A DNA stretch of 64,000 nucleotides from Patescibacteria group bacterium (GTDB taxonomy: Bacteria; Patescibacteriota; Minisyncoccia; Minisyncoccales; Staskawiczbacteraceae). Position 1 is the first letter of the stretch; each line of letters opens with the position of its first letter. The notes beneath the pieces were generated by a model. The model ran no database searches. It was not told the origin of the DNA and was given only the letters and a program-made list of their open reading frames with translations. Location of the stretch: the NCBI GenBank assembly GCA_018829965.1, contig JAHJTG010000005.1, forward strand, positions 49,558 through 113,557. Direction: 5' to 3'. The position numbers were made by a program, and so were the translations under genes. Below are positions 27,718 through 31,612 of this stretch, one piece after another.

Positions 27718-28446
27718 TTAACGAATTTCACAGATTTTAAAAAACGGGGATATTTCTTTTTTGACAGAAATTAACCATTCTTCGGGGTATGGCTTTATTT
27801 TTTCAAAACTGGAATCAATTGTTTTTTCCGGACGAAAGTTTTGTAAATAATATTTAACATTTGTTCCTCCTATCCATTTTGCAATTTCTAAGAAATCTTC
27901 TTTTTTATTAACAGTCGGCACCGCCGTCGTCCTGAATTCAAAGTCAATTTTCCCTTTTCTTAATATCTCAACACTTTTTTTAATCTCCTTTTCGTATTTT
28001 TGGATTTGGGATTTGGGGGTTTTTTGGGATTTAGGATTTAGGATTTGGGATTTAAACACCAAAGGGGTTTTGATATCCATCGCCACATAATCTATCAACT
28101 TCTTGTCTATTAATTTTTCTAACATTTCTGGATTTGAACCATTAGTATCTAATTTCACTAAAAAACCCATTTTTTTTATTTTCTTTATAAGCTCTGGTAA
28201 ATCTTTATTCATACTCGGCTCTCCTCCGCAGATCACAACTCCTTCTAACAATCCCTTTCTGCTTTCTAAAAAATCAAAAACTTCCTTCTCTGTTATTCTT
28301 GGTTGTTTTTTTATTTTTTCCGGTAAAACCAATTCTGGGGAATAGCACCATGGGCAAAAAAAATTGCAACCGGAAATAAAAACCGTGCAAGCTAACTTGC
28401 CCGGAAAATCAATGAGAGTATTTTTTTGTAACCCTCCAATTATCAT
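27718..28446 (-). CDS. nrdG: anaerobic ribonucleotide reductase activating protein (radical SAM)
   Basis: 242 aa with CNFFCPWC (CxxxCxxC), directly downstream of nrdD. It carries an in-frame heptamer-repeat insert (…FKSQILNPKSQKTPKSQIQK…). Confidence 0.8.
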   Translation of the reverse strand: MIIGGLQKNTLIDFPGKLACTVFISGCNFFCPWCYSPELVLPEKIKKQPRITEKEVFDFLESRKGLLEGVVICGGEPSMNKDLPELIKKIKKMGFLVKLDTNGSNPEMLEKLIDKKLIDYVAMDIKTPLVFKSQILNPKSQKTPKSQIQKYEKEIKKSVEILRKGKIDFEFRTTAVPTVNKKEDFLEIAKWIGGTNVKYYLQNFRPEKTIDSSFEKIKPYPEEWLISVKKEISPFFKICEIR

Positions 28447-28456
28447 ATTAAGTTAT

Positions 28457-31400
28457 TTAAATGAATTGCCCCGGTGTTATTTTATATTCCTTCCTCTCTT
28501 TATACTCCTGCTTTTTCCCTTTATGCCATTGTTGTATGGGACGGTAATATCCGACCACCCTAGAATAAACTTCGCAAGGTTGCTTAACCAGACATTTCGG
28601 ACACTCAAAATGTTCTCCATCTAAATATCCGTGAGAGGGACAAATTGAAAAAGTCGGAGTTAAAGTAACATATGGTAAATGAAATTTTTCAAAAACTTTT
28701 TTAATTAATTTTTTTGCCATTTCAGGGTCAGAAATTCTTTCTCCTAAAAATAAGTGCAAAACCGTTCCGCCTGTATATTTAGTCTGTAAATCATCTTGAA
28801 GCTTTAATGCTTCAAAAATGTCATCGGTATAATTAACGGGAAGATGAGTTGAATTAGTATAATAAGGAAGTTCTTTTGTACCAGCAGTGACAATGTCTGG
28901 ATATTTTTCTTTGTCAGTTTTTGCTTGCCTATAAGATGTTCCTTCGCCGGGAGTAGCCTCCAGATTATACATATTTCCAGTTTCTTCCTGAATTTGTACT
29001 AATTTATCTCGCATAAAATCTAAAACTTCTAAAGCAAACTTCTTACCGCGCTTTGACCCGATATCTTCTCCGAGAAAGTTTAACAAAGCCTCATTCATTC
29101 CAATCAAACCAATTGTAGAAAAATGGTTTCCGAAATATGAATCCCTCATCTTCTTAACCGAGGATAAATAATGTTTAGAATAGGGATAAAGTCCTTTTTC
29201 TATAAAGTTTTCTAAAGCTTTTCTTTTTATTTCTAAACTTTCTTTGGCTAGCTCCATAAGACGATCCAATCTGCTAAAAAAATCTTTTTTAGTTTTTGAC
29301 AAATATCCGATGCGAGGTAAATTTATTGTCACCACACCAACAGATCCGGTTAAAGGGTTAGCTCCAAAAAGCCCGCCTCCTCTCTTGTAAAGCTCCCTGT
29401 TGTCCAATCTTAATCGGCAACAATTATGCGTAATAATTCCATTTGCTAATTGAAAAATATGGCCTTTACTGCCTAACTCAAAATCATAAACATAGCCCGT
29501 ATATTTTTGTCTTTCAATTTTAACGATTTTAATACCATAAAAATCTTTATATAATTTGTATTTTAAACTTTTGCCTCTTTTAAGTTTAAAATAAGACATA
29601 AGCCAATCGGGATAATCATTCGTTAATCTTAAAGAATAGCCAATTTTTTCTATATCTCCAGTTTTATTTTTAGATTCAAAATAAGTTGCATTAACCCCTA
29701 AACTTCTCGCTAATGTCATTGTGTCTATAACAAGATTTTTATTGCCTATATGTAAAACAACTACATTTTTAACAAAACCGTCGCTTTCAATTATCCCAAC
29801 AAAAACTCCTCTTCTAAACTCAATAGAACGAGCAAATATTTTAGAATTTAACCTTTTAACTAATGAGCCGTCTCCACGTACATATTCTTTTGTTAGTTCA
29901 ACTACTGATTTGCTCGCAACCGATACTTTCACATAAGAATGATCGTCGTTCAAAAAAATTGTAGCTTTTACACCGAATCTTTTCTCAACGATAGATTTAA
30001 TAAATTTTGCAAAATGAACCTCATTTTTGTTAAAAACAAAATTTGCAGTTGCGCCATTATGAGATACCCAACCATCTCCAATATAAAGACCAATTAATCT
30101 CCCTAAATCAAAATCTCCAAGTTCTCCATTATAAGGATATTTAGCAATAGGAAATTCGTCACCAATTTTTATATCCCTACTTTCTTTAATAACAATTTTG
30201 CCACCTTTAATAACAGCTGAAGGGTGATCTAAAGTCATTTTATCAATTAATCCATTATCTAATGTTAATTTCAAAATTTCTTCATTTTCCAATTTTATCT
30301 TTATAACATCCTTTACTGGTTCAAATTTCCCATTTATAAGCACATCAATTGGGTTATCTCTTTTTATAAAATCATCTACTATCCTTCTAATTTCTGTCTT
30401 AGCAATTATACCATTTGCATTTCTATAAATAATTTGCGTAGATGGTAATTTGCACATCGAACGCGCGTCTTCCGGGTTCATATCTGATTGAATAAAATTG
30501 GAGAAGTAATTTACTCCATATTTTGCAGTTGCCTCCCACAATGGTTTTAAAACAGGGTTGTCCCAATCAAAATCTTTTGTTATAGAAACTGTTGGAATTG
30601 GGAACGTAAAAGGCTTGCCAGTAGCATCCCCTTCCATTAAGCCTTCGTAGAAAGCCCTTATAAGCATATTCATTTCTTCTTGAAATTCTCCGTATATTTC
30701 TTTTTGGGGCTTCCCGCCTACAATTACGGGCTGTTTGGCTAAAAATGACGGCGCTTTAATGTCTAAAGTTACGTTTAAAAATGGCGTTTGAAATCCAACT
30801 CGGGTCGGCACCATGCAACTGTACAAAAACTCTTGCATTGCCTGTTTTACTTGAGGATATGTTAAGCCATCATAACGAATAAAAGGAGCCAGGAGCGTAT
30901 CAAAATTAGAAACAGCGTTAGCACCTGCAGTTTCACCCTGTACGGTATAAAGGAAGTTAACTAATTGACCTAAAGCAGTTCTTAAATGTTTTGCTGGTCT
31001 ACACTCTATCTTTCCTACCACGCCTCCAAAACCTCTCATCAGTAAGTCATAAAGATCCCATCCCATACAATACGGCGCTAAAATCTCTAAATTATGAATA
31101 TGGAAATCTTCTTCAGCCGCCGCCTCTCTTATTTCCTTTGGATAGATTTTATTAAGCCAATACTTTTTTGAAATATAAGAACCGACATATTGGTTCAATC
31201 CTTGTAAAGAAAAGGTCATATTGGCATTCTCATTGACTTGCCAATCAACTTCTTGTAAGTAACTATCTATCTTTTCGCTTGATTCATCAACAGCTTTTGT
31301 CGCTTCTCTTATTTTTCTTCTTTGTTCCCTGTAAAGAATGTAAGCTTTTGCGGTTTCTACATATCCTTCCAAAATCAAAACCTCTTCAACCACATCTTGA

Positions 31401-31612
31401 ATTTGTTCTACTTGAGGAATTTCGTCTTTTTTAAAACGGCGGTTTAAAATTTGGAGAACCCTATTAGAAATCCGCCGAGATTTCGGGCCGTTACCCTCTC
31501 CGGTGGCGGTTAAAGCTTTATGGATAGCATCAGTAATCTTTATTTGGTCAAAATCCATAATCATTCCGTCCCTTTTTCTAATTTTTATAATTCGGTTTTT
31601 TATTTTCGGCAT
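28457..31612 (-). CDS. nrdD: anaerobic ribonucleoside-triphosphate reductase (class III) interrupted by an intein
   Basis: 1051 aa with an N-terminal ATP-cone, a C-terminal glycyl-radical region (RVVGYY) and a Zn ribbon (CPKCLVKQPC). A 344-aa insertion is bounded by Cys387 and …THN730/Cys731. Confidence 0.9.
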   Translation of the reverse strand: MPKIKNRIIKIRKRDGMIMDFDQIKITDAIHKALTATGEGNGPKSRRISNRVLQILNRRFKKDEIPQVEQIQDVVEEVLILEGYVETAKAYILYREQRRKIREATKAVDESSEKIDSYLQEVDWQVNENANMTFSLQGLNQYVGSYISKKYWLNKIYPKEIREAAAEEDFHIHNLEILAPYCMGWDLYDLLMRGFGGVVGKIECRPAKHLRTALGQLVNFLYTVQGETAGANAVSNFDTLLAPFIRYDGLTYPQVKQAMQEFLYSCMVPTRVGFQTPFLNVTLDIKAPSFLAKQPVIVGGKPQKEIYGEFQEEMNMLIRAFYEGLMEGDATGKPFTFPIPTVSITKDFDWDNPVLKPLWEATAKYGVNYFSNFIQSDMNPEDARSMCKLPSTQIIYRNANGIIAKTEIRRIVDDFIKRDNPIDVLINGKFEPVKDVIKIKLENEEILKLTLDNGLIDKMTLDHPSAVIKGGKIVIKESRDIKIGDEFPIAKYPYNGELGDFDLGRLIGLYIGDGWVSHNGATANFVFNKNEVHFAKFIKSIVEKRFGVKATIFLNDDHSYVKVSVASKSVVELTKEYVRGDGSLVKRLNSKIFARSIEFRRGVFVGIIESDGFVKNVVVLHIGNKNLVIDTMTLARSLGVNATYFESKNKTGDIEKIGYSLRLTNDYPDWLMSYFKLKRGKSLKYKLYKDFYGIKIVKIERQKYTGYVYDFELGSKGHIFQLANGIITHNCCRLRLDNRELYKRGGGLFGANPLTGSVGVVTINLPRIGYLSKTKKDFFSRLDRLMELAKESLEIKRKALENFIEKGLYPYSKHYLSSVKKMRDSYFGNHFSTIGLIGMNEALLNFLGEDIGSKRGKKFALEVLDFMRDKLVQIQEETGNMYNLEATPGEGTSYRQAKTDKEKYPDIVTAGTKELPYYTNSTHLPVNYTDDIFEALKLQDDLQTKYTGGTVLHLFLGERISDPEMAKKLIKKVFEKFHLPYVTLTPTFSICPSHGYLDGEHFECPKCLVKQPCEVYSRVVGYYRPIQQWHKGKKQEYKERKEYKITPGQFI
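29423..30454 (-). mobile_element. intein with a LAGLIDADG homing-endonuclease domain inside nrdD
   Basis: Starts at Cys387 (checked: codon TGC, preceded by an ATG Met) and ends with His-Asn followed by Cys (CAT-AAT-TGT). Two LAGLIDADG-like motifs: LIGLYIGDGWVS and FVGIIESDGFV. Confidence 0.8.

Follow-up and report, generated by a model that had tools for sequence, protein, structure and literature searches.

The window analysed here, a stretch of 64,000 nucleotides from a Patescibacteria group bacterium, carries on its minus strand the gene nrdD, in which a long in-frame insert, in all probability an intein, interrupts the coding sequence of a ribonucleotide reductase (RNR). The product of 1051 amino acids (aa) matches ATP-cone and NRDD in Pfam (E = 9e-189), with the NRDD match falling in two stretches that flank the insert. 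The NCBIfam equivalog NF006126 'ribonucleoside triphosphate reductase' also recognises the protein in two stretches (1039 bits against a cut-off of 548), and TIGR02487 scores 530 against a cut-off of 326. These curated models, along with the motif RVVGYYRP, a Zn ribbon, the finger-loop cysteines of MCCR and an adjacent nrdG, identify the host as a class III (anaerobic, glycyl-radical) RNR. The gene and its surroundings are laid out as follows:

28457..31612, minus strand: nrdD precursor open reading frame (ORF), 1051 aa plus stop, with ATP-cone, class III RNR core, intein, Zn ribbon and glycyl-radical motif
30455..31612, minus strand: N-extein, aa 1-386, ending ...PEDARSM and holding the ATP-cone at aa 9-99
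31058..31078, minus strand: bottom-face Cys motif APYCMGW, in the N-extein
29423..30454, minus strand: intein, 344 aa, protein residues 387-730, a Hint splicing domain with a nested LAGLIDADG homing endonuclease
28457..29422, minus strand: C-extein, aa 731-1051 plus stop, holding the Zn ribbon and the glycyl-radical motif
28592..28642, minus strand: Zn ribbon (CPSHG...CPKC), in the C-extein
28538..28561, minus strand: glycyl-radical motif RVVGYYRP, in the C-extein
27718..28446, minus strand: nrdG, the radical-SAM activase, intact and directly downstream of nrdD

In the NCBI record of the same metagenome-assembled genome, the protein appears as a 674-aa 'hypothetical protein KJ786_00480' (MBU2539627.1, P0275) that begins at Met378, nine residues ahead of the intein. 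This gene model is a truncated call of the same frame, which loses the N-extein and names neither NrdD nor the intein. Judged from the public record, the organism seems to be without an intact anaerobic RNR, and the value of the present result is chiefly one of annotation: most likely the organism makes a normal anaerobic RNR after protein splicing. A second NrdD with an allelic intein, P0058 (MBU3934820.1), is also labelled 'hypothetical protein' at NCBI.

Junctions, extein and splicing residues

A first-pass annotation of the window had placed a LAGLIDADG intein at 29423-30454, running from Cys387 to His-Asn730 and followed by Cys731. On the translation, these coordinates and junctions are exact: the first base of Cys387 is 30454, the last base of Asn730 is 29423, and the flanking sequences read ...PEDARSM/CKLPSTQ... 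on the N side and ...NGIITHN/CCRLRLD... on the C side (here and below, a slash marks a splice junction). We searched the 707-aa extein (aa 1-386 joined to aa 731-1051) against a 5.8-billion-protein collection and analysed the best 120 matches. These are 79-87% identical, come from Patescibacteria (Staskawiczbacteria, Nealsonbacteria, Parcubacteria) and are nearly all 698-738 aa long, which bears out the estimate in the same annotation that NrdD, at 1051 aa, is about 350 aa longer than usual. The segment [PA][ED]DxRSMCCRLR, which is the product of removing residues 387-730, runs unbroken and without an intein in 118 of the 120. The top match, P0004, lies in a locus (L002) with the gene order of the window (YbeY, FtsA, FtsZ, NrdD, NrdG, ComEC, DUF6938). 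L002 is an empty site, and its DNA (...CGATCTATG joined directly to TGTTGCCGC...) matches both window flanks base for base. The extein junction proposed in the first-pass annotation does restore a conserved NrdD segment, seen unbroken both in the closest homologues and at a syntenic locus.

The window comes from a metagenome-assembled genome, in which an assembly or binning error could have joined an intein-bearing fragment to an unrelated nrdD. Such a chimera is extremely improbable: independent sources (JGI, Logan, ENA) supply 4 public contigs with the identical 1051-aa protein, each junction preserves the reading frame and falls precisely at a conserved motif, and at least six other Patescibacteria sequences (P0058, P0001, P0002, L004, L005 and L006) have allelic inteins at the exact codon.

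Residue conservation within the insert was read from an alignment (A1) of 20 intein-family sequences. The parts of the element and its C-terminal flank are:

30452..30454, minus strand: Cys1, the block A N-terminal nucleophile, at least 90% conserved in A1
30224..30235, minus strand: block B, T74-L-D-H77 (TxxH), with H77 invariant in A1
30071..30097, minus strand: LAGLIDADG motif 1, LIGLYIGDG, aa 506-514 (intein 120-128), with catalytic Asp127
29840..29866, minus strand: segment SLVKRLNSK with Lys200, which is invariant across the family
29774..29803, minus strand: LAGLIDADG motif 2, FVGIIESDGF, aa 604-613 (intein 218-227), with catalytic Asp225
29423..29497, minus strand: blocks F and G, GYVYDFELGSKGHIF...NGIITHN, with Asp at F:4, His332 and His343-Asn344; matched by TIGR01443
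29417..29422, minus strand: Cys731 (the +1 nucleophile) and Cys732 (aligned with T4 NrdD Cys290), in the finger-loop motif MCCR

The set of residues expected of a class 1 intein is complete, with Cys1 (the sole cysteine of the intein), T74-L-D-H77, block F YVYDFE...H332, NGIITH343-N344 and Cys731 at +1. A1 keeps C1, H77, the LAGLIDADG glycines, D/E127, K200, D225, H332, N338, G339, T342, H343 and N344; D225 is invariant and position 127 is either D or E. Lys200 is probably the conserved endonuclease lysine of block D. When the insert was scanned alone, three Pfam models scored above their cut-offs, namely Intein_splicing (PF14890; 38.9 bits against 35.8), LAGLIDADG_3 (PF14528; 33.5 against 22.5) and Hom_end (PF05204; 21.4 against 21.1), and TIGR01443 (intein_Cterm) gave 24.4 against 15.6. 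The two LAGLIDADG-type motifs named in the first-pass annotation, LIGLYIGDG and FVGIIESDGF, are both present. It had also put forward splicing-block conservation for checking: blocks A, B, F and G all occur, as does the +1 Cys, and A1 shows them to be conserved.

Other identities for the insert were considered and set aside. A group I intron or a free-standing endonuclease gene does not fit an insert that contains a Hint domain and continues the reading frame of both exteins. Bacterial intein-like (BIL) domains belong to variable proteins, need no +1 nucleophile and carry no homing endonuclease; this identity is ruled out by the host, which is a highly conserved enzyme, by the presence of the +1 Cys and by the endonuclease nested inside. 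The element is not a class 3 intein, having Cys1 and, at F:4, Asp rather than Cys (YVYDFE). A 71-aa ORF on the opposite strand (29721..29936) was taken as a chance ORF in AT-rich DNA.

Family, fold and place in the finger loop

Searched exhaustively with HMMER, a set of 1.84 billion representatives yielded 790 relatives of the intein at E<=1e-3, and most of the best of these are full-length (1-344) and embedded in larger proteins. Of the nine best matches that were scanned, eight are NrdD proteins whose profile match is broken at the same position. HMMER was needed to see the family, as a word-indexed search with the intein alone returned just 3 matches and overlooked the allelic intein of P0058.

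An AlphaFold2 model of the intein built from A1 is confident (pLDDT 93.9, pTM 0.92) and has a beta-rich splicing (Hint) domain, while residues 115-289 form two alpha-beta-beta-alpha-beta-beta-alpha repeats by DSSP. In a Foldseek search of the PDB, the top hits of the model were the inteins TliVMA, PhoVMA, PI-PfuI, PI-SceI and PI-TkoII (E from 1e-15 to 1e-18, TMq 0.65-0.80), followed by the free-standing LAGLIDADG enzymes I-Tsp061I and I-DmoI, which align on the central domain (TMt 0.56-0.67). The solved structures concerned (TliVMA 7qsu/7qss, PhoVMA 7qst, PI-PfuI 1dq3, PI-SceI 1vde and PI-TkoII 2cw7) are archaeal or yeast inteins with the two-domain architecture of the window element, and they share with it the class 1 residues Cys1, TxxH, HN and Cys+1. 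They differ in sequence, at 12-17% identity, and in their hosts, which are a V-ATPase, a class II RNR and a DNA polymerase. At 344 aa the element is smaller than these inteins (about 360-540 aa), so it probably does without extra DNA-recognition or stirrup regions. The element is divergent in sequence and, as modelled, canonical in structure.

The insertion site lies within the catalytic center of the enzyme. T. maritima NrdD 328-SCCR-331 has been aligned to phage T4 NrdD 288-MGCR-291 as the finger-loop motif with the critical cysteine (PMC4493059). When the extein is aligned with the PDB entry for Prevotella copri NrdD (8p23), M386-C731-C732-R stands opposite M-G-C-R. Cys290 of T4 NrdD is well established as the site of the thiyl radical. 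By these alignments the intein separates the Met of M-C-C-R from the first of the two cysteines, one residue ahead of the cysteine that bears the thiyl radical. This refines the first-pass annotation, as the insertion is inside the MCCR finger-loop motif, a loop filled by related inteins in many other NrdD genes. Cys731 doubles as a native conserved residue of the host and as the +1 splicing nucleophile, and the CC pair is also native to intein-free NrdD.

Because the intein splits the finger loop one residue ahead of the radical Cys, the unspliced precursor should be catalytically inactive. Elsewhere the gene appears functional: RVVGYYRP, the Zn ribbon and the bottom-face Cys are all present, and the adjoining nrdG is intact. 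Since an insertion in this loop must block catalysis, splicing is likely to be both obligatory and efficient. In particular, it would be obligatory for anaerobic synthesis of deoxynucleoside triphosphates (dNTPs), given that the precursor cannot be active.

We propose that translation first yields the 1051-aa precursor, from which the Hint domain would then excise itself in the four standard steps. An N-S acyl shift at Cys1, helped by Thr74 and His77 of block B, would be followed by trans-thioesterification onto Cys+1 (Cys731), by cyclisation of Asn344 with the help of His343 and of His332 in block F, and by an S-N shift. This should leave a 707-aa NrdD in which the M-C-C-R finger loop is native.

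It could instead be supposed that the insert does not splice, so that nrdD is disrupted and decaying or the extra domain is kept in the mature protein. The NCBI pipeline, in missing an intact NrdD and calling only the 674-aa protein from Met378, would agree with this. However, the frame is open over 1051 codons in AT-rich DNA, and for the insert alone the probability that DNA so composed holds a 344-codon open frame by chance is about 7e-16; the remaining two sense frames contain 37 and 46 stops. No splicing residue is missing, the exteins, at 87% identity to NrdD without an intein, have not lost the glycyl-radical, Zn-ribbon or Cys motifs, nrdG is intact, and a working enzyme could not tolerate a finger loop split beside the radical Cys. 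A non-splicing insertion is thus very improbable, and a splicing intein is the better account of the same gene.

A close parallel is the LAGLIDADG intein of the class I RNR R2 subunit of Aquifex aeolicus, which is about 346 aa long, lies between di-iron ligands and has been shown experimentally to splice (PMC8772380). Like the window element, it occupies an RNR subunit amid catalytically essential residues, such that splicing is needed for the active site. The two differ in that di-iron ligands take the place of the thiyl-Cys loop, and in that splicing is experimental there and predicted from sequence here.

The cysteines at the junctions raise a further possibility, which is that splicing is gated by redox state: under oxidising conditions disulfides among Cys1, Cys+1 and Cys+2 would block it, and NrdD would mature when the cell is reduced or anoxic. 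Disulfide-trapped inteins have reportedly been described in other proteins, for example the PolII and MoaA inteins of Pyrococcus abyssi. Three cysteines do stand at the splice junctions (Cys1, Cys731 and Cys732), with Cys1 alone within the intein, and the host enzyme is oxygen-sensitive; moreover, the Aquifex R2 intein is reported to influence cofactor loading (PMC8772380). Against this, NrdD proteins without an intein have the CC pair too, so the host shows no evident adaptation to the element; most close relatives have no intein, and nothing in the sequence demands a redox reading. We regard redox gating as unlikely; if it were true, the intein would not be purely parasitic and would act as a post-translational oxygen switch on dNTP supply in a small-genome bacterium of the candidate phyla radiation (CPR).

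Distribution and probable mobility

The intein differs in composition from the gene around it. Its GC content is 28.6%, compared with 38.0% for the N-extein and 35.4% for the C-extein, and its GC content at third codon positions (GC3) is 16.6%, compared with 32.4% and 28.0%, respectively. It also stands out in the composition profile by a strongly negative GC skew on the plus strand.

Its occurrence is patchy. Inteins were found in just 2 of the 120 closest NrdD proteins, P0058 at the same codon and P0085 at another site, and hosts 87% identical to that of the window have none. The nearest intein relatives, 63-68% identical and at the identical codon, are in Nealsonbacteria, Gribaldobacteria and two other Patescibacteria (L004-L006 and P0001), whose exteins are merely 64-74% identical to those of the window. 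Conversely, the extein of P0058 is 83% identical yet its intein is merely 49-52% identical, placing that intein in a more divergent sub-lineage though its host protein is closer. The inteins of P0058, L004 (Nealsonbacteria, PETY01000031), L005 (JBDRKH010000069) and L006 (Gribaldobacteria, PFAX01000004) come from different species and share the codon of the window (RSM/C...ITHN/CCRL) and its motifs; they are 346-350 aa long and 49-67% identical to the window intein, and none is labelled as an intein in the record names returned.

Because the intein is missing from the closest hosts, and because intein and extein similarities are discordant, gain by homing or repeated loss fits this distribution. 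The low GC3, the patchy occurrence and the disagreement between intein and host similarity point to a mobile element spread by homing, of a kind that circulates among Patescibacteria. Once excised, the intein, or an ancestral form of it, would act as a site-specific DNA endonuclease: nrdD alleles that lack the intein would be cut at the conserved junction sequence, and the intein would be copied in as the break is repaired.

A rival account accepts splicing and holds that the endonuclease is dead, the intein having been fixed and vertically inherited in a late phase of the homing cycle, and kept since imprecise loss would destroy NrdD. The compact size of the intein (344 aa) speaks for this, as does the comparison with L004-L006 (three GTDB species representatives), in which intein identities of 63-67% roughly track extein identities of 64-74%, as fits vertical descent. 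On the other hand, the family as a whole conserves D127, D225, the motif glycines and Lys200, the model of the endonuclease core is of high confidence, and recent mobility explains more easily why the closest hosts (87%) are without the intein and why P0058 is discordant. A dead endonuclease is a serious possibility, if short of probable. With both aspartates and the conserved lysine intact, the balance tilts slightly towards an endonuclease that is still active.

We put at roughly 93% the probability that NrdD residues 387-730 are a canonical class 1 intein with a two-motif LAGLIDADG homing endonuclease, that the precursor splices itself, and that the element was spread by homing. This reading draws on the boundaries of the insert, the exact reconstitution of the extein, the retention of every catalytic residue, the fold, and a distribution and composition like those of mobile elements; that splicing actually occurs is what these features lead us to expect.

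Several points weigh against it. Sequence similarity to solved inteins is weak, the best phmmer match in the PDB being the Pab PolC intein (E = 0.011), and it was the comparison of folds that proved telling. On a scan of the whole precursor, Intein_splicing falls just under its cut-off (34.1 against 35.8), and the N-terminal intein model TIGR01445 had no match on the protein in the NCBIfam scan. The low GC could come partly from relaxed constraint rather than from a foreign origin, and the kept active-site residues of the endonuclease are not proof of current activity.

Inteins in other NrdD genes

The first-pass annotation described the host gene as a classic intein target; inteins are indeed well known from RNRs, and RNRdb has curated about 80 of them (PMC2795772). 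A putative intein was previously noted in the nrdD of Clostridium phage c-st / D-1873 (PMC3653736), and our tblastn search of phage genomes recovered it as a homologue of the window intein, with 27% identity across 85% of the length (E ~4e-10). Both are LAGLIDADG-type inteins of a class III RNR that interrupt a finger-loop xCCR, end in NGIITHN and have Cys at +1. The c-st intein is inserted one codon downstream, between both cysteines (ASC/CFDG...ITHN/CRL), so that the radical Cys itself is the +1 residue; it also has Cys rather than Asp at block F:4, and its host is a phage rather than a CPR bacterium. Little specific literature was found on NrdD intein insertion sites or on Patescibacteria inteins.

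Two registers one codon apart can be told from these junctions, M/C...HN/CCR in the window and MC/C...HN/CR in c-st (L003 1352-4288 is the phage c-st nrdD). Among the 150 best representative clusters, 76 end in the NrdD finger loop, with 17 in the window register (HN or HQ/CCR) and 59 in the c-st register (HN/CR). The window intein is thus one more member, in the rarer register, of a large family at a known hot spot. It is a clean, compact example of a known pattern, that of inteins at the catalytic heart of RNRs, and as an ordinary textbook case it leaves the understanding of inteins and of class III reductases unchanged.

A sub-group at the exact site of the window ends in His-Gln instead of His-Asn (RSM/A...THQ/CCRL) and comprises P0126, P0127, P0130, P0131, P0132, P0141, P0163 and P0228. 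Ala replaces Cys at position 1 in P0126, P0127, P0130, P0131, P0132 and P0141, for which the N-terminal junction was recovered, as it does in the second of the intein copies of P0228. P0163 lacks its N-terminal part, and the His-Gln members that were examined have Asn at block F:4. This His-Gln/Ala1 sub-group presumably resembles the Ala1 'class 2' inteins and Gln-terminal inteins such as CIV RIR1.

Class 3 inteins are characterised by a missing N-terminal nucleophile together with a block F Cys. Nine site-b clusters (P0149, P0171, P0177, P0180, P0186, P0195, P0222, P0230 and P0253) have, by block A register, Pro at position 1 (..SMC/PLxxDT..) and a block F Cys in place of Asp (xLYCFEVD), and their block B keeps its His and has no Trp. 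These may be unrecognised class-3-like inteins in NrdD. In the finger loop, homologous inteins might have moved by one codon in register and switched splicing chemistry (Cys1; Ala1 and Gln-terminal; Pro1 with a block F Cys).

Two of the Patescibacteria sequences have inteins elsewhere in NrdD. P0085 (TSC95156.1, Parcubacteria Licking1014_1) contains a different LAGLIDADG intein of 428 aa at aa ~182-609 (APY/T...LLVHN/CAGWD), directly before the other conserved catalytic Cys (window Cys182, in APYCMGW) and apparently starting with Thr. L004 (PETY01000031.1, Candidatus Nealsonbacteria CG02) has, besides its same-site intein, a second intein in the N-extein, upstream of 1501, that ends ...VFITGN/CPFTNITLD where the window equivalent reads GFQ/TPFLNVTLD. 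With this second L004 intein, NrdD of Patescibacteria has at least three intein insertion sites.

We also observed an imperfect heptanucleotide tandem repeat (TTTGGGA x8.4 on the plus strand, window 27998..28053) inside nrdG. It encodes a low-complexity KSQ/PKSQ stretch, an 11-aa insertion that is not in the syntenic NrdG of L002 (65% identical overall), and, since its 7-nt period is not divisible by 3, copy-number slippage of the repeat would shift the frame.

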